Shown in pieces: positions 20,716 to 48,677 of a stretch of 56,283 nt of DNA. Location of the stretch: IMG/VR virus record IMGVR_UViG_3300038825_000737, positions 1-56,283 of that record; one strand, 5' to 3'. Position 1 is the first letter of the stretch; the number at the start of each line of letters is the position of its first letter. The stretch comes from a virus. Its lineage: Duplodnaviria; Caudoviricetes. The translations under genes were made by a program, and so were the position numbers. The notes under the pieces are model-generated. The model did no database searches and was not told where the DNA came from. It worked only from the letters and a program-made list of their open reading frames with translations.

Positions 20716-22245
20716 TTACAGACTTACTTCAGATAAGTCAAGCCAATTATTTCCTATTTTTAATTCTATACCAACTGGCATGTCATACTCTATGCCATAC
20801 CTACGTTTCGTCTCACTTGGCAAACACAACATAGCTTCAGATAATACTTTGATACATTGCTCTTCTTCGCTTGGATGCACATCAAGAACGATGGAATCAT
20901 GGACTGTGTTGCATATAACTGACTTCATTTCTTGCTTTCTCATCAGTCTATCTAGCCTTACCAACGCAATAGGCAATAGATCAGCCGTAGCGAACCCCTG
21001 AACAGGGTAATTACATATAGCAGTACGATTGGTAGCTGAACCCCATTCTGTCCACCTAGCGTCAGGAAACGAGTATTCTCGACCAGACGGCAATTTAACG
21101 AGTTTTGTAGTTACGGCTTCTTTCTCTAGCTGTTTGTGCCACTCACTGACTTGTTCGTACTTTTCTTTGAACCTTTGATAGTATTGTTGCTGACTACGTG
21201 TGCCACTCACACCACCGTACAAAGGTTTGAATGTGTGTGCTTTTGCTTCTTGTCTAGAGCAACCTATAATGGATGCTGTATAGCTGTGAACATCTGTGCC
21301 TTTTTCTACATCATCATACACTTGTTTATCTTTTGCAAGAAAGCCTGCCACCCTAAACTCTAACTGTGAGTAATCGCCCTCAAGTATTTTGCCACCATCA
21401 AATCTACTTTCAACAACCTTACGTATGGCAAACGTTGAACCACGTGGCATGTTTTGAAAGTTAGGATTACGACTAGATAGCCTACCAGTTGCAGTTACAC
21501 ATTGCATGAACTCAGGATGAATAAAGCTATCATCGTCTACATTGTTTTTCATGCCTTCAACAAACGTAGACAGATAGGTACGCAAAGCATTGTATCGTAC
21601 ATACGCTTCACAGAACTCACGAGCATTACCGTCTAGTTCAGATAGCCTATCTTCAAGAGTTACCTTGTCTGTCTTGAAACCTGCAGATGCAGTATCCCTA
21701 ACTGTGCGTGGTATAAGCTTGAACCCTGCCACCTCGCCAGTAGATGTGTAGACCACGCCCTTGCCTATACAGTCCTTGCATATACGCTTGGCTTTACCAA
21801 TGCTTCCGTCTTTCTTTAGTGGTGTTACTCTCCCTGATCCGTTGCACGGCTGACACTGACGACCGATAGTTTTGTACACAATGTCAGTCATACGCCTAAC
21901 CGACCGTACAAAATCTGTATTCTTCATGCGAGTTCGCATCTTTGGTTTGATTGTGTTGCCACGCATCTCGTGTCCTAGATTGAATGTCATCGACCACAAT
22001 GCTTTGTCTTTTACTTTGCGAGAGTAAAGCAACATGCTTTTGTCGTCAGGACTGGCTAGGTTGATAGGTGTGTCACCCATAGCTTCTTTTGCCAACTCAT
22101 TCAGTCTGTTCTCCAAGACGTGCATTTCATCTTCGTATTCTTTTTCTATTTGGTCTAAGGTATCTAGATTAATCTTCAATCCGTTGTGTTCTATCCTAGA
22201 TAGCACATCAGTCATTTCAAATGACAGTTTCAGTGTCTGTTTCAT
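20716..22245 (-). CDS. polA: DNA polymerase family A, polymerase part with DnaJ-like zinc-finger insert
   Basis: TATGRLSS, DYSQLEFR, RxxxKxxxFxxxYG, NYPVQG, VHDS; CQPCNGSG and CKDCIGKG; GAGGA RBS before ATG 22245. Confidence 0.92.
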   Translation of the reverse strand: MKQTLKLSFEMTDVLSRIEHNGLKINLDTLDQIEKEYEDEMHVLENRLNELAKEAMGDTPINLASPDDKSMLLYSRKVKDKALWSMTFNLGHEMRGNTIKPKMRTRMKNTDFVRSVRRMTDIVYKTIGRQCQPCNGSGRVTPLKKDGSIGKAKRICKDCIGKGVVYTSTGEVAGFKLIPRTVRDTASAGFKTDKVTLEDRLSELDGNAREFCEAYVRYNALRTYLSTFVEGMKNNVDDDSFIHPEFMQCVTATGRLSSRNPNFQNMPRGSTFAIRKVVESRFDGGKILEGDYSQLEFRVAGFLAKDKQVYDDVEKGTDVHSYTASIIGCSRQEAKAHTFKPLYGGVSGTRSQQQYYQRFKEKYEQVSEWHKQLEKEAVTTKLVKLPSGREYSFPDARWTEWGSATNRTAICNYPVQGFATADLLPIALVRLDRLMRKQEMKSVICNTVHDSIVLDVHPSEEEQCIKVLSEAMLCLPSETKRRYGIEYDMPVGIELKIGNNWLDLSEVSL

Positions 22246-22792
22246 ATAGTTCCTCAAATGTTAAGCCAAAGGCTTCTAGTTGTTTTACTGCAACCTCTTC
22301 TGTTGCAATCACGTCTGCTATTCCATACTCTTCTACTATCTCTGCAGGGATGTCGAAGAACGTTTTCCCCTCTTTAAGATACGGTGTAACCAAGTCCGTT
22401 TCTTTTTGGGTAACGTTATAGCGTTTTGCAAGAGCATCAAGTGCCAAAGACCAACGCCTTCCTTTCGACCGAAGATATTCTGCAACCATCGTATCATATA
22501 TCACTCCATCATATTTAAATCCACATGCACGTAACCACATGATGTCGAACTTTATGTTTTGTCCGACAAGCACGTCAGTTTTGTCCAAGTCATTTTGTAT
22601 TTTATTTACGGTTTCTGAATTGTACCACGTGTCTTTATCTTTGTGGTAGAAAAATTCATAGTTAACATCTTGGTTTAACAACCACTTCCAACCTATTGAT
22701 ACCAAACGGTTATTGAAGTAAGGCAAAGCAGTAGTACCACCACCTTGTCTGTCCTTGTGAGTAGTTTCTACATCTAAAGTTAACACGTTCAT
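22217..22792 (-). CDS. 3'-5' proofreading exonuclease (separate N-terminal part of PolA)
   Basis: LDVET (ExoI), GQNIKFD (ExoII), YDTM, YGIAD (ExoIII). Confidence 0.88.
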   Translation of the reverse strand: MNVLTLDVETTHKDRQGGGTTALPYFNNRLVSIGWKWLLNQDVNYEFFYHKDKDTWYNSETVNKIQNDLDKTDVLVGQNIKFDIMWLRACGFKYDGVIYDTMVAEYLRSKGRRWSLALDALAKRYNVTQKETDLVTPYLKEGKTFFDIPAEIVEEYGIADVIATEEVAVKQLEAFGLTFEELYETDTETVI

Positions 22793-24018
22793 TAGTAGTA
22801 AACTCCTCTTGCGATATCTATTTGGGCATTGATCATACCATGCCACCCATTGATTTTATTTTTAGATATACAGATATGTCTGACCACGTTATCCACTTCA
22901 CTTGAACCAGTCTTACCTATGCCGATTATTATGTCGGCTTCTCCTGCCTTGCCAGTCTTTGAGTTATCTAGCATAGCATAGTCAATGAACTGTCTGTCGT
23001 GAGCATCGTAACTGGCTTGACTTACTGCCCAAACAAGACACGTGTTACGCTTAGCTATCTCCCTTGCAGATACATAAGTTTCCTTGAGACGCTCATCGCC
23101 ACGATTGTATTCGCCTTTTATTCTGAACTTATCTAGCTGATCACAAAACATTATGTCAGGTTTGTTTAGCTTAGCGTACTCATCTACCTCTTCGATAGAT
23201 GTACCCACCGAATCCATGATAGTCAGATATGGTTCTATCTCTCGTTTGTACACCTCAAGCAATTCAAACCGTTGTGCTACCATATCTTCTTTTGTCAGTT
23301 CAAAGTATGACTGTATTATTCTTAATTTTATGCGTGCAGCAGGTTCTTCATTTGCCCAATACACCACTTGAAAACCCTGCTTTATGTAAGATGATGCAAG
23401 AAAGCAACAAAACGTTGTCTTACCTACTTCAGGTCTTGCAAACAAGATACCTAAGTTGCCACGATCTAAACCTTTGATGTTCTCATTTATTAAGTTGAAT
23501 GTGAATGGAAAATCATTGTCGCCTGCCACTTCTGTCAGCAGTTCGTTTAGATCTTTGTCAACCACAGTGTAAGTTGTTTTGTCACCTATCCTGCCGTCAT
23601 CTACACTTTCGATCAGCTTCTTTAACTCACCGAACTCATCACTGTCACCAGTGAATATGTCTAAGGCTTTCTCACCTATCTGTCTAGCTTTGTCACGTAA
23701 CCACAGATTGTTTACTATGTCAGTATGTAACTCATCACTTTCTCTTGGTGCAACGAGTTGTTCAACCATCTCTTGTACACGCTTACGTGCAGAGTCAGGC
23801 ATGGCAGGATTACGATCATTAAATATTGTTGATAGTTCAGACACAGATAAACTACGATTGTACTTCGTGTGTGAATAGACTATCGTGTCAAATATATCTT
23901 TTAGTTCATTGTCGAACATAGTCCGATCAATTTTATTTTTTACTTTGTTGAAGAAGTCAACGTTGAGACAGAAACCTAATACTTGTCTGTCAATCGATAT
24001 AACGCCTGATGAACTCAT
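22792..24018 (-). CDS. DnaB-like SF4 replicative helicase
   Basis: ARPEVGKT Walker A, NEE, DQL, SQ, EAD and KNK motifs. Confidence 0.88.
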   Translation of the reverse strand: MSSSGVISIDRQVLGFCLNVDFFNKVKNKIDRTMFDNELKDIFDTIVYSHTKYNRSLSVSELSTIFNDRNPAMPDSARKRVQEMVEQLVAPRESDELHTDIVNNLWLRDKARQIGEKALDIFTGDSDEFGELKKLIESVDDGRIGDKTTYTVVDKDLNELLTEVAGDNDFPFTFNLINENIKGLDRGNLGILFARPEVGKTTFCCFLASSYIKQGFQVVYWANEEPAARIKLRIIQSYFELTKEDMVAQRFELLEVYKREIEPYLTIMDSVGTSIEEVDEYAKLNKPDIMFCDQLDKFRIKGEYNRGDERLKETYVSAREIAKRNTCLVWAVSQASYDAHDRQFIDYAMLDNSKTGKAGEADIIIGIGKTGSSEVDNVVRHICISKNKINGWHGMINAQIDIARGVYY

Positions 24019-24772
24019 TTCTTTCCCCTCTTTCCATATCTTTCAAATCTTTGTTTAAAACAATTAATTTAGTTGGAACATAGTTCCGTAGTTTTCTCAT
24101 CATAATGTATGCCTTAGATGTTGCATCTTTGTCAAGAGCAACAAATACTTTTTCATATTTTTTTATTACATCTACATGCTCATTTAGTAATGTAGTTCCC
24201 ATTAGGGCGATCCCCTGACCAATACTTGCCACACTGCAAGCACTAGGGCAATCTTCCACAACAAAGGCAATAGTACCTCGACCACAAATATAAGGATACT
24301 TGCTATTTCCATATCTTCTCCATTTTGGTTTCCTTTCATTTAAACTCCTACCAGTTGCATCAACAATCTTGTTGTTGTGTTTAACTAGATAGACTACTCT
24401 CTCTTGTTGAAAGTCGTATCGTATGTCTGCTAATCCATTTAGGTAAGCATCATACGATCCAACTCTCTTAACATATGCTTCAGCTTCTTTGCTACGTGAA
24501 AGCGAAACAAACGTATCTGGAACGACAAACTCTGTGTCGCTTGTCTGTTTAGTAAAGCGTTCCTTAAATGCAACCTTTGAGTTCTCTTTTGTAAGTTGCA
24601 CTCCAGTTGAACCTTTTGTGTGGCAATCAGCGTGAAAGCAGTACCACAATCTTTCAAATCCTGTATCTGTTACACTAAAGGTGTTATGCCTATGACACAT
24701 AGGGCAATCACCCCTATAACGCCCATAAGATACAACATGTAAGTTTCCCACATAATTTCTTATCCATTCCAT
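23990..24772 (-). CDS. DNA primase (zinc-binding domain + TOPRIM)
   Basis: CPMC...CFHADC, VVED, ALDKDA; likely start MEWIRNY. Confidence 0.85.
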   Translation of the reverse strand: MEWIRNYVGNLHVVSYGRYRGDCPMCHRHNTFSVTDTGFERLWYCFHADCHTKGSTGVQLTKENSKVAFKERFTKQTSDTEFVVPDTFVSLSRSKEAEAYVKRVGSYDAYLNGLADIRYDFQQERVVYLVKHNNKIVDATGRSLNERKPKWRRYGNSKYPYICGRGTIAFVVEDCPSACSVASIGQGIALMGTTLLNEHVDVIKKYEKVFVALDKDATSKAYIMMRKLRNYVPTKLIVLNKDLKDMERGERNEFIRRYID

Positions 24773-24779
24773 TTCTGAA

Positions 24780-24850
24780 CCCTTACTACACAATAAAAAT
24801 AGTGTCAAACAAAAAAATAATTTGACGTAATTTTAAATCCGTGATATGTG
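24780..24850. promoter_or_regulatory. Divergent sigma70-type promoter pair (replication vs early regulator operon)
   Basis: TTGACA on minus strand (24808-24803) and TTGACG on plus strand (24822-24827), with an A-tract between; -10 boxes are degenerate. Confidence 0.55.
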
Positions 24851-24875
24851 TGTGAAACCCTTTGGGAGATACGCT

Positions 24876-25088
24876 ATGCCTAGACCAAATAAATTATTTA
24901 AAGAAACAATGTCATACAATTTGACAATAGAAAAAAAAGATTACGAGGAGCTAAAAAACTTCTCGACAAAAGAAACAAACACGTTTAACATGCAAGTAAG
25001 TATTGCAGATCTTATTCGTACATCTGTTAAACTTTACATAGAGGATTTACGTAAAGAATATGAAAGAAAAGAAAGACACAAAGACTGA
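24876..25088 (+). CDS. Ribbon-helix-helix-like transcription regulator
   Basis: MPRP start, beta strand SYNLTI, helix, then SIADLIR; next to the divergent promoters. Confidence 0.6.
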   Translation: MPRPNKLFKETMSYNLTIEKKDYEELKNFSTKETNTFNMQVSIADLIRTSVKLYIEDLRKEYERKERHKD

Positions 25089-25335
25089 CATAACACAACG
25101 TAGCGATGGTATGTGGATAGTCGATGCCAAGTTGTCAGCAGTAAGAATAGGATTACAAGATAAAGAATTTGTCAAGCGAGGACACAATCTAGATTACAGA
25201 TTATGGATTACGTGTTTTGTCGCTAAGTCAAAAAAGGCTTGTGTTGATTGGCAAAGAAACAACATGGATTACCTAGATAGGTTAAGTCAAAAGTATTCTG
25301 TGAATGTCAAACAATATAAGCAAAGCATCGGTTAG
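25060..25335 (+). CDS. Hypothetical protein
   Basis: ORF overlapping the regulator gene. Confidence 0.55.
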   Translation: MKEKKDTKTDITQRSDGMWIVDAKLSAVRIGLQDKEFVKRGHNLDYRLWITCFVAKSKKACVDWQRNNMDYLDRLSQKYSVNVKQYKQSIG

Positions 25336-25429
25336 TTTTTTCCTTTCGACTAATCGATGTTTTGAAAGCTATGTTTTCTCCTTAATGCTAGAGGGGAGTG
25401 ACCGTTAAAAGTCACTCCTCTTTTTTTTT
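25321..25429 (+). ncRNA. Candidate 3'-UTR RNA with anti-Shine-Dalgarno loops
   Basis: 16-bp stem with loop UUUUUCCUUUCG; second weak hairpin with UUUUCUCCUU; then a terminator. Confidence 0.45.
25391..25429 (+). terminator. Intrinsic terminator
   Basis: GGAGTGAC/GTCACTCC stem followed by T9. Confidence 0.8.
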
Positions 25430-25430
25430 G

Positions 25431-25460
25431 TTGACAGATGTTTTTAGTTAGTTGTATAAG
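25431..25460 (+). promoter_or_regulatory. Sigma70-type early promoter
   Basis: TTGACA-18-TATAAG directly after the terminator. Confidence 0.65.
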
Positions 25461-25489
25461 TTACCCTGAGTCAACAGAAAGGAAATATT

Positions 25490-25711
25490 ATGGCTAGGAC
25501 ATACAAAAAGAAAATACCAAACGTAACACACAACGGTATAATAAATGTGTGGGATTTTGTTTCATTTGAGGAATACCCAAACGAATATGGTAAAAGGATT
25601 TATCTAGATATACAAGGATTAGTAGATGCTTCGGAGCATGAACTACAAAGTAATAAAAGATATAAGAATTTTGAAGTTGAATCTTATGGTGTTAAAAGGT
25701 GGGGATGTTAA
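25490..25711 (+). CDS. Hypothetical early protein
   Basis: AGAAAGGA RBS. Confidence 0.6.
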   Translation: MARTYKKKIPNVTHNGIINVWDFVSFEEYPNEYGKRIYLDIQGLVDASEHELQSNKRYKNFEVESYGVKRWGC

Positions 25712-26860
25712 ATGAATTGGCTTAATTTATGTAGTGGTGGCGAGATAGGTCGCCAAGCAGTAAAAGAACTAGGACTACCAGTAACTAACTGGTTTAGTTC
25801 TGAGATAGATAAGTTTGCTATCAAGGTAGCCAAAGACAATCACGATGACATAACTCATCTAGGTGACATAAAAAACATAATGAAGTTTTGGGATTGGAAT
25901 AGGTTTCCAAAGATAGATGTCATTCTATGTGGGTCACCTTGTCAGGGATTTTCTGTGGCAGGCAAAGGTTTGAACTTTGAACACCCTCAATCGAAGTTGT
26001 TCTTTGAGTTTGTCAAGATATACAAATATCATTACAAACGTAATCCAAAGTTAAAACTGTTGTTTGAAAATGTCAGGATGAAAAAAGAATGGCAAGAGAT
26101 TATTGTCAGCACATTACAAGAGATAAATCCTAAACTAAAAATGCACATGATCAATTCATCTATCGTGTCTGCACAGAATAGAGTACGTATGTACATAACT
26201 GATTTTGAGTTTGATATACCTAAAGATAGAGGTATCAAGTTAAAAGACATAATCGAGTGTGGTTGTGTAGACAGAGAAAAGTCATACTGTCTAGATGCTA
26301 ACTATTGGAAAGGTGGCAACTTGCGAACTTACTTCGAGAAGTCACGTAGACAGTTGGTATTCAAAGATGGTTGTCAACAAGTTGGTGTAGCTGATCTGAA
26401 TGGACATGACATATTAAAGCGTGTCTATTCTGTCGAGGGAAAGTCACCTACATTGAATACTTGTGGTGGTGGCAATCGTGAACCCAAAATACTTTGCAAG
26501 TCTGCTTCGGTAAAAGGTAGACGTATTGATCAAGATGGAGTACGAAAGGATAACGACAAGTCTATTCCACTTGTACAGACACTTGAAGTTTACGACAACG
26601 ATAAGTCACGGTGTCTATCTACAGTAGACAAAGATACAGTAGTTTCACCATTACCTGTTGGTCGCTATCCACACGCTTATACAGATAGTGCTTTACAATG
26701 GCGTAAACTTACTGTAAGGGAATGTTGTAGGTTACAAACGTTACCTGATGATTATTGTAAATCTGTAAGCAACAGTCAGGGATACAAGATACTTGGGAAC
26801 GGTTGGACTAACGAAGTCATTAAGTTTATATTGAAAGGAAAAGCTAATGAAAGTAAGTAA
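25712..26860 (+). CDS. C5-cytosine DNA methyltransferase
   Basis: GSPCQGFS (IV), FENV (VI), QNRVR (VIII), RECCRLQT (IX), GNGW (X); motif I atypical (LCSGGEIG). Confidence 0.9.
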   Translation: MNWLNLCSGGEIGRQAVKELGLPVTNWFSSEIDKFAIKVAKDNHDDITHLGDIKNIMKFWDWNRFPKIDVILCGSPCQGFSVAGKGLNFEHPQSKLFFEFVKIYKYHYKRNPKLKLLFENVRMKKEWQEIIVSTLQEINPKLKMHMINSSIVSAQNRVRMYITDFEFDIPKDRGIKLKDIIECGCVDREKSYCLDANYWKGGNLRTYFEKSRRQLVFKDGCQQVGVADLNGHDILKRVYSVEGKSPTLNTCGGGNREPKILCKSASVKGRRIDQDGVRKDNDKSIPLVQTLEVYDNDKSRCLSTVDKDTVVSPLPVGRYPHAYTDSALQWRKLTVRECCRLQTLPDDYCKSVSNSQGYKILGNGWTNEVIKFILKGKANESK

Positions 26861-27593
26861 ATTAATTCATGATTTACATGAAAAGGTAGAATGGCTTGAG
26901 AAAGAAAATATCAAGCTTAAATCTAATGTTTCATATTCTGAAGATGATCTGAACAGACAGATTACTAATCTAAGAATTAAACAAAGAGAACTAGAGAAAG
27001 AAAATGTCAGGCTTGTCGCCCAGTTGGAAAATGATGAACATAACGTTGGGCATCTAGACGAGAAGATGAAGAGGTTAGACTATCTAGAAAAGGTATTTGC
27101 TTCTAATCGTTATGTCTTTACTGATATACCTAACACACCTGAGAACTTAAAGATGGTCAAGATGATGAAGAAGTATGTCAACAAAAGAAGATACAATCTA
27201 AGATGGCGTGGTCAATATCTTGTCGATGGAGAAAACTGGAAACAATATCAGTATGGACAACCACTGTCTAAGTCGAAATGTATTCGTGTCTACATAGATA
27301 GCTTAACTCATGCAATCGACACAGTTGAAGGATTTAACAGATCTGAAGTTGGCGTGATTACTGAGGGTTTGTGTTTGCTCATTGATTTATGTCAGGAGAA
27401 CATTAGGTCATGGGAAGATGGAGAACCTAACGAAGATGTCGATAACGAAAAGAAAACTTTAGAAATGTCAAAGCAATTACTTTCTTATTTTGAATCTATG
27501 CGACTACACCTTGAGAACTCTGCTTCAACACCTATCAAAGATCTTGTCAATATAGTTATACCAAAAGGTGACAAACCATGTCACACCAAATGA
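26847..27593 (+). CDS. Hypothetical early protein with N-terminal coiled coil
   Basis: GAAAGGAAAA RBS. Confidence 0.6.
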   Translation: MKVSKLIHDLHEKVEWLEKENIKLKSNVSYSEDDLNRQITNLRIKQRELEKENVRLVAQLENDEHNVGHLDEKMKRLDYLEKVFASNRYVFTDIPNTPENLKMVKMMKKYVNKRRYNLRWRGQYLVDGENWKQYQYGQPLSKSKCIRVYIDSLTHAIDTVEGFNRSEVGVITEGLCLLIDLCQENIRSWEDGEPNEDVDNEKKTLEMSKQLLSYFESMRLHLENSASTPIKDLVNIVIPKGDKPCHTK

Positions 27594-27772
27594 ATGACAA
27601 AGTGTTCGACACTATAAATGACAAATGGTTTATGTTGGGTCTAGATGAATTTAAAGATTGGCTAAAAACACATAGGCAAACAGATGATGTTGCTGATAGA
27701 GTTTATCTAGCTCTAGATTATCTAGAGGAGAAGTGGAAACAAGAAATGCTTGACAGTTATCCACACATTTAG
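27578..27772 (+). CDS. Hypothetical early protein
   Basis: AAGGTG RBS; overlaps the upstream gene. Confidence 0.55.
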   Translation: MSHQMNDKVFDTINDKWFMLGLDEFKDWLKTHRQTDDVADRVYLALDYLEEKWKQEMLDSYPHI

Positions 27773-27778
27773 TAACAC
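27750..27778 (+). promoter_or_regulatory. Putative early promoter
   Basis: TTGACA-17-TAACAC. Confidence 0.45.
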
Positions 27779-27808
27779 TCTTAATCTAAACAGAAAAGGG
27801 GAAACTTT

Positions 27809-27982
27809 ATGCAAGTTAGAGATCTAATTAAATTATTACAGAAACACAATCTTAATAATGAGATTGTGTTTTATAATTTAGAAAACCATAATCTATCACA
27901 GTACAATTTAGAAAGCATAATTGAGTGTACACTATCTAAACAAACTGAGATCACTACAACAAAGGAGAAAGTTGATGAGTAA
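27809..27982 (+). CDS. Hypothetical 57-aa protein (not in ORF track)
   Basis: AGGGG RBS; MQVRDLIKLLQK start; fills the gap and overlaps the next start. Confidence 0.6.
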   Translation: MQVRDLIKLLQKHNLNNEIVFYNLENHNLSQYNLESIIECTLSKQTEITTTKEKVDE

Positions 27983-28577
27983 TACAGATAGAATAAGAGC
28001 TTATTACAATCTGCACAAAAAGTGCTTCTCTGTACAAGATTACAAAACTGGTTTGGTTATCGAGCATACTGATAAGTTGTTCATGACCAATGCTATGTTT
28101 GTTGTCAGGAAATCAGGAAACGAAAGAGTAAAGAAAGAGGGCAAGAAGAATGTCCACGCTTTTGTAAATGGAATACGCCATGACAAACCAATCGACACTA
28201 ACCATTGCAATAACTATGAGGTTAAATACAATCCATACACAATGGACTTTTTCCACTACAAAAGAGTGATGCTTGAATTTAACGCTTGGCTACCAGTTGA
28301 TCGCCATTGGATCGGTAACGTTTGGCTTTTTATGTACGATAACAAACCAAACATCTATGCAGATATAGATAAGTTAGTATCACCAATTAGCTATGACAAA
28401 TCAAACGACACTAAAGGTGAACCAATTAAGGTAATCCAAGATGGTAATTGCACCAAAAAATACTATGAGGGTGGTGGCTTCGCTATGAGTATAGATCTTG
28501 AAAAATCAGGATATAATGAATTTTTAAGGAAGAAAAGAAAGCAGATAGAAAATAAAAAGAAACTTCTTGCTATTTAA
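27975..28577 (+). CDS. Hypothetical early phage protein
   Basis: AAGGAG RBS before ATG 27975; YYNLHKKCFSVQ...KKNVHAFV...YNPY. Confidence 0.65.
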   Translation: MSNTDRIRAYYNLHKKCFSVQDYKTGLVIEHTDKLFMTNAMFVVRKSGNERVKKEGKKNVHAFVNGIRHDKPIDTNHCNNYEVKYNPYTMDFFHYKRVMLEFNAWLPVDRHWIGNVWLFMYDNKPNIYADIDKLVSPISYDKSNDTKGEPIKVIQDGNCTKKYYEGGGFAMSIDLEKSGYNEFLRKKRKQIENKKKLLAI

Positions 28578-28637
28578 TCTAGATAGTTTAGAAGAATAAA
28601 TATGTTCAATTTAAATAGATAATGAAAGGAAACTTAA

Positions 28638-29645
28638 ATGAACTATATTGCTAATAACTTCAATCATGAAGTAAAAACTCATAGAGATTATACTGATGTT
28701 AGTTTTTATGAAGATAATTCCAAAATAACTAAAGTTGATATTGAATGTCTAACACCAATGTACGGTGGTGATGCTAGTCAGGATATATTAAAACCTACTA
28801 AATTAGAGGGATATTTTGGTTTATATAATTCTAGTTTGGATAAGTTATTAAACACTCGACCAGTTTCAAGTACTTATCAATTAGTTGCCCATCATGAGTT
28901 GTTTTCTGAACAAGCAAAGATACTTAGCCAATCTGATTTGCCACTAGATAACGTTACTATTAAAGATCAGCTTTACAAAGATGGATTACAAGCTCATAGA
29001 ACTATATTTTTTCATGATCTAGAAACTACAGTTTCCAATAATAAAGATAAGGTTTTATCTAGAATAGATATTTTTAATAGTTGTGATATGTCTTGGAGCT
29101 TTCAAGTTTTCTCAGGTGCGTATCGTGATCTATGTAGAAATACTTTAGTCTTTGGTGGGCAAAAAGCATACCATCAACAAGCTAAGCATACTAGAAACTT
29201 ATCTACTACTGCTCTTATGACTAAGGCAAGTATAGGTTTGGAGTTTTGGAATAACCAAAAGGATACTATGCTAAATTGGAGAGCTAAAGATATGAGTTTG
29301 GAACAGTTTGGACAGATCTTAAAACAAACTATCTGTAAAAAGAAATCCAAATCAGCAGAACTTAATTTAACCAATCCTGTAAATGAAACTAAGCTTAATT
29401 ATTTATTGGATAGGTTTGAAAAAGAAACGCCTGATCTAGGTAAAACTATGTGGGCAGGATATAATGCCTTAACACATTGGGCAACTCATACTGATGAAAC
29501 TATCGAGAAAGAAATCGATAATAAGTTAGTCAAGATTAGATCAGGTAAATCTACTGCTGATAAACCAAGCGTTCAAAGAACAAGAAATGATGAAGTAAGA
29601 ACTGTCATTGAATGTGATGCTTGGAAAGAAATGGAGATAGCTTAA
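28638..29645 (+). CDS. DUF932-like protein
   Basis: NSCD.S......GAYR.LC.N and WAGYNALTHWATH motifs. Confidence 0.7.
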   Translation: MNYIANNFNHEVKTHRDYTDVSFYEDNSKITKVDIECLTPMYGGDASQDILKPTKLEGYFGLYNSSLDKLLNTRPVSSTYQLVAHHELFSEQAKILSQSDLPLDNVTIKDQLYKDGLQAHRTIFFHDLETTVSNNKDKVLSRIDIFNSCDMSWSFQVFSGAYRDLCRNTLVFGGQKAYHQQAKHTRNLSTTALMTKASIGLEFWNNQKDTMLNWRAKDMSLEQFGQILKQTICKKKSKSAELNLTNPVNETKLNYLLDRFEKETPDLGKTMWAGYNALTHWATHTDETIEKEIDNKLVKIRSGKSTADKPSVQRTRNDEVRTVIECDAWKEMEIA

Positions 29646-29646
29646 C

Positions 29647-29745
29647 GTGAAAGGCTTAACTGAAACTATGGGAGTATTAATGTTCATTTGGAGAATATTA
29701 ATACTTCTTCTTATCGTAATTATTTTGTATGCAATTTTTATTTAA
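29647..29745 (+). CDS. Small membrane peptide, 32 aa (not in ORF track)
   Basis: GGAG RBS, GTG start, long hydrophobic run. Confidence 0.4.
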   Translation: MKGLTETMGVLMFIWRILILLLIVIILYAIFI

Positions 29746-29759
29746 TGAAAGGAAACAAA

Positions 29760-30005
29760 ATGAAAAGTAATCATGTAGATAAATCACAAATTAAAGTTTG
29801 TGTTATTTGTGCAGAAACTATTAAACCAAAGTTTCTTGGTTTGGATAATGACGGCAATAATCATTATTGGTATGGTGGAAACAATGCCCAACCAGTCGCT
29901 GACGGTGTGTGTTGTGATCATTGTAATAAGACTGTTGTTATTCCTGAAAGAATGACAAATATTCTGATGTCAAGAAACTTAGATAATTTTAATAAATTGA
30001 TATAG
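29760..30005 (+). CDS. Small zinc-finger protein
   Basis: CVIC...CCDHC; GAAAGGAAA RBS before ATG 29760. Confidence 0.65.
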   Translation: MKSNHVDKSQIKVCVICAETIKPKFLGLDNDGNNHYWYGGNNAQPVADGVCCDHCNKTVVIPERMTNILMSRNLDNFNKLI

Positions 30006-30013
30006 GAGTTAAC

Positions 30014-30364
30014 ATGAATACATTAACCAACATTGACACAACTATTGATGCCATCAAAGAAGTGTCAAGTAATGCACTTTTAAAGCATGGCTTCAGCAGA
30101 TCACGTCAACGTATATTTGACCTATCAAAAGAACTGGATCAGGCTTGGCAGAACTACAAAGTTATACATGGTAGGACATATTACAAAGAGCTAGTACTAT
30201 TTGTAATTACACGTTCTACAAATGGCTTACGCTATAACACCATAGCAAGAAGATCAGGATTAAAAAAGGTTGTAGTTCATGATTGTTTAACTGAGTTATT
30301 AAGAGAGCAATTAATTTATAAAAACTTGAATGGAAAAAAGCTTTTATACTGTGCAAAAAAATAA
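30014..30364 (+). CDS. Hypothetical protein, possible C-terminal winged helix
   Basis: AGGAG RBS; GLRYNTIARRSGL...CLTELL pattern. Confidence 0.5.
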   Translation: MNTLTNIDTTIDAIKEVSSNALLKHGFSRSRQRIFDLSKELDQAWQNYKVIHGRTYYKELVLFVITRSTNGLRYNTIARRSGLKKVVVHDCLTELLREQLIYKNLNGKKLLYCAKK

Positions 30365-30365
30365 C

Positions 30366-30395
30366 TTGCATTAAATAAAAAAATAAATTTATAAT
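30366..30395 (+). promoter_or_regulatory. Sigma70-type promoter
   Basis: TTGCAT-18-TATAAT. Confidence 0.6.
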
Positions 30396-30396
30396 C

Positions 30397-30428
30397 AGGC
30401 TAGGTTAGGAATTAATCTAGCCTTTTTT
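30397..30428 (+). terminator. Intrinsic terminator overlapping the predicted start site of the adjacent promoter
   Basis: AGGCTAGGTT/AATCTAGCCT stem plus T tract. Confidence 0.7.
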
Positions 30429-30449
30429 AATAAGAAAGGAAGTCCAACG

Positions 30450-30797
30450 ATGGAAACAAGAACTTATTTAATAAATACAGTTTGGGATTATTTTAATAAA
30501 GAACTCAAACAAGTAGATGGAAACGAAGTAACTATTCAATTTAAAGTTATGGATAAATATACGATGATTGAAATTATCGGTATTAAGAAAAGTATCGGCA
30601 AACAATTTACGTTTCAAATCATATGCCATAAAGACCAAAACATAACCATACTTGAAAATAAAAACGATCAAGTAGAATTTGAAAAACAACCTATTAATTC
30701 AAATGTGGATAGGGTGCATTTTAACCAATCATTCGAGCCAAACGCAACGTTTGGTTTGCATGGTCAATTAGAATTATTTGAAGAGGAAGTAAACTAA
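30450..30797 (+). CDS. Hypothetical early protein
   Basis: AGAAAGGA RBS. Confidence 0.6.
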   Translation: METRTYLINTVWDYFNKELKQVDGNEVTIQFKVMDKYTMIEIIGIKKSIGKQFTFQIICHKDQNITILENKNDQVEFEKQPINSNVDRVHFNQSFEPNATFGLHGQLELFEEEVN

Positions 30798-48648: not shown

Positions 48649-48677
48649 TTGACAAATCAATAGTCTATCTGTATAAT
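48649..48677 (+). promoter_or_regulatory. Perfect-consensus sigma70 promoter
   Basis: TTGACA-17-TATAAT. Confidence 0.8.

Follow-up and report, generated by a model that had tools for sequence, protein, structure and literature searches.

What does the last stretch of a small phage operon do besides ending the transcript? The question is raised by the virus record IMGVR_UViG_3300038825_000737 of IMG/VR (Duplodnaviria; Caudoviricetes), a complete record of 56,283 bp that, over its whole length, is referred to below as the window. On its plus strand, two overlapping open reading frames (ORFs), ORF1 and ORF2, are followed by an RNA element at 25321-25429, a consensus-like promoter and a run of small early genes. 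An earlier note on this DNA, made from the letters alone, had proposed that the element presents loops complementary to the ribosome-binding sites (RBSs) of the phage's own early genes. The analysis described here provides strong evidence that a plus-strand RNA hairpin is under selection at this position. It further leads to a tentative reading, held with a little less than even confidence, in which the 3' end of the operon mRNA is an anti-Shine-Dalgarno (anti-SD) riboregulator whose hairpin loop (loop 1) is aimed at the early phage RBSs.

The element consists of a hairpin, a linker and a terminator. The arms of the hairpin (hairpin 1) at 25321-25336 and 25349-25364 form 16 pairs, and reading the sequence bore out the earlier claim of a stem whose G-U pairs are valid on the plus strand only: two of the pairs, 25325-25360 and 25331-25354, would turn into C-A mismatches if the minus strand were folded. 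Part of the 5' arm is made up of the final ORF2 codons, including the stop codon TAG (25333-25335). The plus strand folds with -45.0 kcal/mol (z -5.9), which is matched by none of 200 shuffled sequences; the corresponding values for the minus strand are -32.9 kcal/mol and z -3.8. The loop at 25337-25348 reads UUUUUCCUUUCG, and its core UUUUCCUUUC (25338-25347) is unpaired, with a predicted opening energy of 0.01 kcal/mol. For the linker, the earlier note had described a second, weaker hairpin, which did not hold. It is just a 3-bp helix in the minimum free energy fold and is missing from the RNAalifold consensus; the CU-rich core UUUUCUCCUU is therefore single-stranded. The opening energy of the linker in a 3' fragment is 1.0 kcal/mol. 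The terminator that had been said to follow is present, its G+C-rich stem-loop of 13 pairs standing directly before the U tract. The element thus spans the last codons of ORF2 to the operon's only terminator, which means that it lies in the 3' untranslated region (UTR) and shares the terminator of the mRNA. There are four strong terminators in the window, and a CU tract precedes this one only.

When genomes were searched with R1, a covariance model of the element, a single copy was obtained in each. Applied to the Pelagibacter phage HTVC033P, the model finds nothing comparable; a weak match of 18.1 bits corresponds to the terminator only. None of the 4227 Rfam models reaches its gathering threshold in the window or in three related loci (L019, L021 and L011). 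The best scores of a permissive Rfam scan of 24000-27000 belong to RF00519 mmgR/suhB (21.8 bits vs 41, E 0.2) and L20_leader (19.6 vs 58.7). Two further roles for this region were considered and rejected. An internal promoter before the hairpin can be discarded, as roughly every second clade A copy (six copies of group 1 and most of group 2) has CATAAG in place of the hexamer TATAAG at 25315-25320, and no -35 box was found. An anti-terminator, in which the CU tract would pair with the G-rich terminator arm, can be discarded as well, as conservation of this arm does not extend to clades B and C.

The relatives of ORF2, which are assigned to clades A to E, were sampled from 25 viral contigs and 70 metagenome loci. 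The element, with its 16-bp hairpin, CU-rich linker and terminator, recurs downstream of ORF2 in relatives. A covariance analysis across related phages, proposed earlier as a check, yielded stem covariation beyond that of shuffled alignments and an invariant loop core. In the alignment of 16 distinct copies, seven of the 16 stem pairs are changed on both sides and 94.2% of the cells are paired; the covariation score is 0.295, compared to 0.179 in shuffles (0 of 500 as high). Sliding the partner arm by one to three columns lowers the pairing to 41-60%. The outer 13 pairs are paired in 100% of the cells on the plus strand, with 21 G-U and no A-C cells. When the collections were pooled, 31 unique copies were obtained, which possess 11 different arm pairs forming contiguous stems of 13 or 17 pairs. 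Among their 467 pair cells, 70 are G-U, valid on the plus strand only, and seven are A-C, all at the loop-closing pair of group-2 copies. The coding and the non-coding arm change together: where the C-terminus of ORF2 changes from IG to TN, the non-coding 3' arm follows. In the terminator, 99.5% of the cells are paired, with two compensatory pairs and 31 G-U cells that exist on the plus strand only. The 3' arm, the linker flanks and the terminator loop are variable across the copies, whereas the loop core UUUUCCUUUC is invariant in all 31. A CUCC or CCUCC core of the linker is kept in clades A, B and C, and its flanks vary by insertions and deletions that are not multiples of three; the region is therefore non-coding. 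The paired changes and the retention of G-U pairs argue against a DNA palindrome and against an RNA made from the minus strand.

Which sequences does the invariant loop match? Its core is the exact complement of GAAAGGAAA. This 9-mer occurs six times in the window, compared to 0.93 expected occurrences, and none of 100 shuffled sequences reaches this number. Two of the occurrences are on the minus strand, where one represents the loop and the other (24329) is part of the primase gene; the remaining four are plus-strand sites, each located 4-5 nucleotides (nt) before a start codon. The four RBSs that had been named before, at 25477, 26833, 28624 and 29747, are thus exact complements of the loop, and the partial matches claimed at 30434, 30965 and 31163 appear in the list of start regions. 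The loop thus provides unpaired pyrimidines that are complementary to the SD sequences of its candidate targets. For the linker motif, a match near 27962 had been claimed: the site exists as AAGGAGAAAG and agrees in nine of ten positions, but the exact 10-mer is found nowhere else. Allowing up to one mismatch, UUUUCUCCUU has 17 matches, compared to 9.2 expected. Loop 1 pairs with the early start regions of the window with a mean of -9.4 kcal/mol (n=13) and with the other start regions with a mean of -5.9 kcal/mol (n=42; Mann-Whitney p = 2.8e-4). As to RBS usage in general, early genes have RBSs of the GAAAGGA type, which are found in five of the 70 called start regions, located from 25490 to 30450 without exception. 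In late and replication genes the RBSs are of the AGGAG or GAGG type; an AUGGC[A/U] start is found in 18 of 57 genes.

The loop and the 9-mer occur together across the relatives. Plus-strand GAAAGGAAA sites are found only in the early region just downstream of the element, namely four in the window, seven in the related genome G002 and six in G001. Called start regions contain the 9-mer in four of 70 cases in the window (all four sites), in seven of 63 in G002 (including one minus-strand gene) and in five of 63 in G001. G003, which does not possess loop 1, has no GAAAGGAAA in its early region. In the set of viral contigs, the 9-mer is present downstream in 19 of 19 loci with loop 1 and in none of five without it. 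From the pooled loci, duplicates in the initial 400 nt downstream were removed, and loci with less than 1 kb of sequence on that side were set aside; among those kept, GAAAGGAAA is found in 25 of 26 loci with loop 1, compared to none of nine in clades B and C and none of two in clade D. The pairing energies follow the same division. Loop 1 pairs best with the early start regions of clade A (-10.4 kcal/mol vs -8.6 to -9.1 kcal/mol), and the CCUCC tracts of clades B and C favour their own GGGGAAAA or GGAGAAAA RBSs over those of clade A. In a cross-table of motifs and start regions, matched combinations are 1.5-1.8 kcal/mol better than mismatched ones, whereas a generic 16S rRNA tail has no such preference.

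The linker behaves differently from the loop. Its 25 nt pair with 57 start regions of the window with a mean of -11.6 kcal/mol, compared to -7.8 +/- 0.7 in shuffles (0 of 200), and ten of these regions reach -16 or lower, compared to 0.4 expected. In the window, the 5' flank of the linker contributes pairing with AUGGC starts: if the core is kept and the flanks are shuffled, the mean is -9.24 +/- 0.68, compared to the observed -11.57 (1 of 200), and 1.5 instead of ten regions are expected at -16 or below. This flank effect is not significant in G002, G001 and G003 (p 0.20, 0.11 and 0.19). A conserved "anti-start-region" directed at both the SD sequence and AUGGC was therefore ruled out, and only the CU core is conserved.

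A 5' hairpin, a single-stranded pyrimidine tract and a terminator with a U tail represent the layout of base-pairing small RNAs. In the mechanism proposed for the locus, the last ~110 nt of the ORF1-ORF2 transcript would form a regulatory RNA module, composed of the long hairpin with the ORF2 stop codon and the invariant loop UUUUCCUUUC, the CU-rich single-stranded tract and the intrinsic terminator. The module would accumulate and act either as part of the mRNA or, once processed, as a small RNA derived from the 3' UTR. In the infected cell, loop 1 would pair with the GAAAGGAAA RBSs of the early genes transcribed from the promoter immediately downstream, which would make these genes its targets. 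The direction of the effect would be repression: pairing would block binding of the 30S subunit and thus help to shut off early-gene translation. A bolder version, which we regard as rather doubtful, assumes that the early genes are marked by GAAAGGAAA as a private RBS word, that the loop outcompetes the 16S tail for this word, and that the early class is shut off by RNA alone. Loop and word would then have co-evolved, with CCUUUC and GAAAGGAAA in clade A and CCUCC and GGGGAAAA or GGAGAAAA in clades B and C.

Several observations weigh against an anti-SD riboregulator of early genes. With p = 1.3e-3, the generic 16S 3' tail favours the early start regions as well, and any anti-SD-like sequence would therefore produce part of the match. 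The CUCC of the linker is such a generic anti-SD sequence and is the most widely conserved motif (clades A-C). Moreover, the linker of the window pairs better with late than with early start regions (-12.8 vs -9.8 kcal/mol) and is therefore a misfit to a purely early-gene silencer; host mRNAs may be targets as well. A helix of 9 bp presumably cannot form fully within a loop of 10-12 nt unless the stem opens. The association between loop 1 and GAAAGGAAA is essentially one evolutionary split, clade A versus the rest. Furthermore, four shorter clade C loci (L093, L114, L119 and L120) contain GAAAGGAAA without loop 1, the clade A locus L072 contains loop 1 but no GAAAGGAAA within 1.4 kb, and the GAAAGGAAA RBS appears to move with gene cassettes. 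In clade D (L121-L124), ORF1 and ORF2 are present without hairpin, CU tract or terminator, the ORF2 stop codon lying ~20 nt from the -35 box of the promoter; the element is therefore dispensable there. Finally, among contigs from RNA libraries, one (X2, 25132-25485) continues past the terminator. Parts of 24642-25485 are present in each of the four runs; contig X3 (25093-25429) ends at the end of the terminator T tract and contig X6 at 25381. These are assembled Logan contigs found in a search seeded with this stretch; they indicate presence and not strand, ends or level, and were weighed neither way.

The best-surviving alternative, still an unlikely one, regards the hairpin as a 3' stabiliser or insulator with a protein-binding loop. 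The hairpin would protect the mRNA against exonucleases and insulate the terminator, and its pyrimidines would be bound by an Hfq-like protein, S1, a cold-shock protein or the products of ORF1 or ORF2. Clades A, B and C all have a hairpin that includes the ORF2 stop codon, despite differing sequence and size, and the hairpin itself may therefore be more ancient. The usual Hfq-binding module consists of a U-rich tract, a terminator and a U tail, in this order, which counts in favour of this alternative. ORF2, being without a known fold, could bind RNA; however, profile and fold searches found no RNA-binding family for ORF1 or ORF2. A stabiliser also leaves unexplained why the loop is the exact complement of a 9-mer in four to seven early RBSs per genome and why the motif types are matched within clades.

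Two other explanations keep the pyrimidines as base-pairing sequences and change the partner; both are distinctly improbable. The first is an anti-SD RNA directed at the host, in which the CU tract, and perhaps the loop, would pair with host RBSs and the match to phage genes would be a by-product of shared SD chemistry. It draws on the finding that what clades A-C have in common, CUCC/CCUCC, is the core of a generic anti-SD sequence, and on the similar behaviour of the generic 16S tail on start regions. However, such an RNA would hit the phage's own late genes too, as the mean linker energy for these indicates. The loop 1 match also runs two A's past the coverage of the 16S tail and tracks the phage's own early RBS type, and no relative was found among 185,579 species genomes. 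The second, of equally low standing, is auto-regulation in cis: the CU tract of the 3' UTR would fold back on the SD sequence of ORF1 (GGGAGA) or of ORF2, as in icaR mRNA. Both ends lie on one transcript, and UCUCCU is able to pair with the ORF1 SD sequence (TTGGGAGA), which is maintained in clades A and C. Yet the linker reaches only -10.6 and -10.7 kcal/mol with the operon's own start regions, compared to the mean of -11.6 over the 57 start regions, and the ORF1 SD sequence of G001 is of a different type. Loop 1 yields -5.6 to -9.9 kcal/mol with the ORF2 start region, in a register that differs in each relative; pairing of the loop with the ORF2 start codon region was discarded as weak and inconsistent.

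It is very unlikely that the loop functions on the minus strand (GAAAGGAAAA) as the RBS of a small ORF, which has 13 codons in the window, as the earlier note had considered. The minus strand does read GAAAGGAAAAAACTAACCGATG, and each of the 15 relatives examined has an ATG or GTG after it. However, the start codon alternates between the two and lies inside the stem, and the ORF has 13 amino acids (aa) in ten of the 15 relatives, 5 aa in one and at least 34 aa in four. The spacing is 9-10 nt, compared to 3-8 nt (mostly 4-5) at 17 real early RBSs. Moreover, the 70 G-U pairs show selection on a plus-strand RNA, and to the right, where the neighbouring genes are all on the plus strand, no conserved minus-strand promoter was seen. 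The notion that the inverted repeat acts as DNA, for instance as an operator recognised by the ORF1 protein or as a cruciform related to an origin, can practically be dismissed: it is a long repeat adjoining promoters and the replication module, but G-T mismatches are kept and swapped with Watson-Crick pairs (70 of 467 cells, vs seven A-C cells), and the arms are free to change in sequence as long as they pair as RNA, a freedom that would be incompatible with a protein operator.

The features of the locus are collected in the following table.

Features of the ORF1-ORF2 operon, its 3' RNA element and the early region (positions in the window; energies in kcal/mol)
Feature	Position	Strand	Basis or remark
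Replication genes	up to 24808	-	gene layout
Putative promoter of the ORF1-ORF2 operon	24822..24850	+	TTGACG, 17 nt, TGaTATGTG (extended -10 type); consensus match only
ORF1, 70 aa, possible ribbon-helix-helix regulator	24876..25088	+	weak profile and language-model leads
ORF2, 91 aa, no known family	25060..25335	+	shares 29 nt with ORF1
Hairpin 1, 16-bp stem (17 with closing U-G pair)	25321..25364	+	reading and folding
Linker, single-stranded, CU-rich core UUUUCUCCUU (25374-25383)	25365..25389	+	no conserved pairing in folds
Intrinsic terminator, 13-bp stem-loop and T9	25390..25429	+	stem 25390-25423
Putative early promoter	25431..25460	+	TTGACA, 18 nt, TATAAG; directly 3' of the terminator; consensus match only
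GAAAGGAAA RBS of first early gene 25490-25711	25477..25485	+	loop 1 duplex -11.4, opening energy 2.6
GAAAGGAAA RBS of gene 26847-27593	26833..26841	+	loop 1 duplex -13.9, opening energy 1.1
GAAAGGAAA RBS of gene 28638-29645	28624..28632	+	loop 1 duplex -11.4, opening energy 0.3
GAAAGGAAA RBS of gene 29760-30005	29747..29755	+	loop 1 duplex -11.4, opening energy 3.3

What kind of phage carries this locus? The closest match of its DNA polymerase is that of HTVC033P (49.8% at the aa level), followed by Puniceispirillum phage HMO-2011 and then by Roseobacter CRP phages. Judged by these matches, the phage is an HMO-2011-type podovirus; it is apparently lytic. Its host is therefore probably a marine alphaproteobacterium, like those of the nearest cultured phages. 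No tRNA genes were found in the window. Similarity to cultured phages at the DNA level is confined to the methylase gene, a C-5 cytosine methylase that belongs to the early plus-strand gene run. The polymerase gene of the window (20716-22846, minus strand) comprises two ORFs (22217-22846 and 20716-22257) that overlap, whereas its HTVC033P counterpart is a single gene of 678 aa; the split could be natural, a frameshift or an assembly error. In the late region, a near-consensus promoter of the sigma-70 type (TTGACA-17-TATAAT) is located at 48649-48677.

The replication genes on the minus strand and ORF1-ORF2 on the plus strand are separated by a divergent promoter region. The promoter block upstream of ORF1 is conserved in 12 of 15 relatives listed; the remaining three (L027, L042 and L045) have another gene there. 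In clade E (L129-L133, 47% aa identity), the gene order is different and a primase-like gene follows ORF2 on the same strand. ORF1 may be a ribbon-helix-helix (RHH) protein. It has no significant Pfam match and no match in a PDB profile search. In PHROG it weakly matches an Arc-like repressor (E 0.072), and its nearest named ESM Atlas clusters, DUF3950, RHH_1 and MetJ (0.89-0.91), provide leads only. The AlphaFold2 (AF2) monomer is one long helix with a predicted local distance difference test (pLDDT) score of 76.6 and is uninformative; none of the 118 homologues is named. The label "RHH regulator" given earlier is thus a weak one, drawing on the Arc-like match and the language-model leads. 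For ORF2, no family was found in Pfam or PHROG and no Foldseek match at E <= 0.001; its AF2 model is mixed alpha/beta at low confidence (pLDDT 62). Its 81 homologues are all unnamed and marine or viral. No relative of ORF2 was found among the species genomes mentioned above, and searches of cultured phages gave just two chance matches at E 7-8. According to these searches, the ORF1 and ORF2 families are confined to this uncultured clade.

Downstream of the element, TTGACA follows the T tract in all 24 loci that extend there (as CTTGACA in L016 and TTTGACA in L023; L018 ends earlier). The spacer of this early promoter (25437-25454 in the window, …TTTTTAGTTAGTTG…) is unusually conserved across clades; the ORF1 protein may use it as an operator. 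In many relatives (L004, L005, L008-L010 and L012-L015), the early promoter and the first RBS are separated by a conserved insert of ~33 nt with CACTCCCTATACTAAGAACAG. This sequence has no match in the window with up to three mismatches, and in L023 the insert is located upstream of the promoter, where the RNA element would be. The first early gene of the window, which codes for 73 aa, represents a cassette: in contigs from two runs, 25489 is joined to 25712, and in L002 and L003, which do not possess this gene, the methylase directly follows the promoter.

How does an anti-SD element at the end of an operon mRNA compare with known systems? RNAIII of Staphylococcus aureus is a dual-function mRNA with C-rich anti-SD hairpin loops. 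The window element resembles it in being part of an RNA that encodes small proteins, in presenting pyrimidine loops of 3' hairpins that are complementary to several SD sequences, and in ending with a terminator. In contrast to RNAIII it is phage-encoded, its loop contains UUUUCCUUUC instead of UCCC, and there is no sequence or structural homology between the two. An anti-SD mechanism is also used by the AbcR, NfeR1 and cuckoo small RNAs. Alphaproteobacterial representatives include AbcR1/2, NfeR1 (alpha-r14) and the cuckoo family (PMC8844928, PMC10746234, PMC4615179). Like them, the window element ends in a terminator that is preceded by two unpaired stretches of pyrimidines, the first exposed in a hairpin loop and the second belonging to a linker; the host class is likely the same. 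However, the known RNAs are chromosomal and independently transcribed, whereas the window element is the 3' end of a phage operon. The comparison with AbcR and cuckoo RNAs drawn in the earlier note is therefore sound as an analogy and does not extend to membership, as no Rfam model reaches its threshold.

Among phage RNAs, the c4 antisense RNA of P1 and P7 is described as a structured RNA whose loops pair around the RBS and block translation of phage genes (PMC12197685). The window element is likewise a structured RNA encoded by a phage, for which loop pairing around the RBS is proposed. According to that source, c4 acts on one operon (ant) by long specific complementarity and in the immunity of temperate phages; the window element, in contrast, offers a short motif for a class of four to seven early genes in an apparently lytic podovirus. 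The Rfam model of the C4 antisense RNA has no match in the threshold scan of the window or in the permissive scan of 24000-27000. The icaR mRNA of S. aureus contains an anti-SD motif in its 3' UTR that acts in cis on the mRNA's own SD sequence. An anti-SD pyrimidine motif in the 3' UTR of a regulator mRNA is common to both, whereas pairing of the window element with its own operon's start regions is no better than average.

HMO-2011-type podoviruses belong to the abundant phages of marine alphaproteobacteria, and little is known about the timing of their gene expression. In a literature search with partial coverage, no paper on an anti-SD RNA in these phages or in pelagiphages was found. The element would add an RNA motif that is supported by covariation, is not in Rfam, and lies between a regulator operon and an early promoter. 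If the proposed role is true, the element would be an uncommon example of a phage small RNA regulating the programme of the phage itself via a shared RBS word and not via one specific target; a short word and a matching loop would be a simple and portable design for class-wide translational control. A parallel to this role is found in T4, where the repressor RegA and the endoribonuclease RegB shut off early mRNAs via their start regions or SD sequences. In both cases a whole class of early mRNAs would be silenced by means of a shared RBS feature. In T4 the effectors are proteins, whereas the effector proposed for the window is an RNA, which would make it the RNA counterpart of RegA and RegB.

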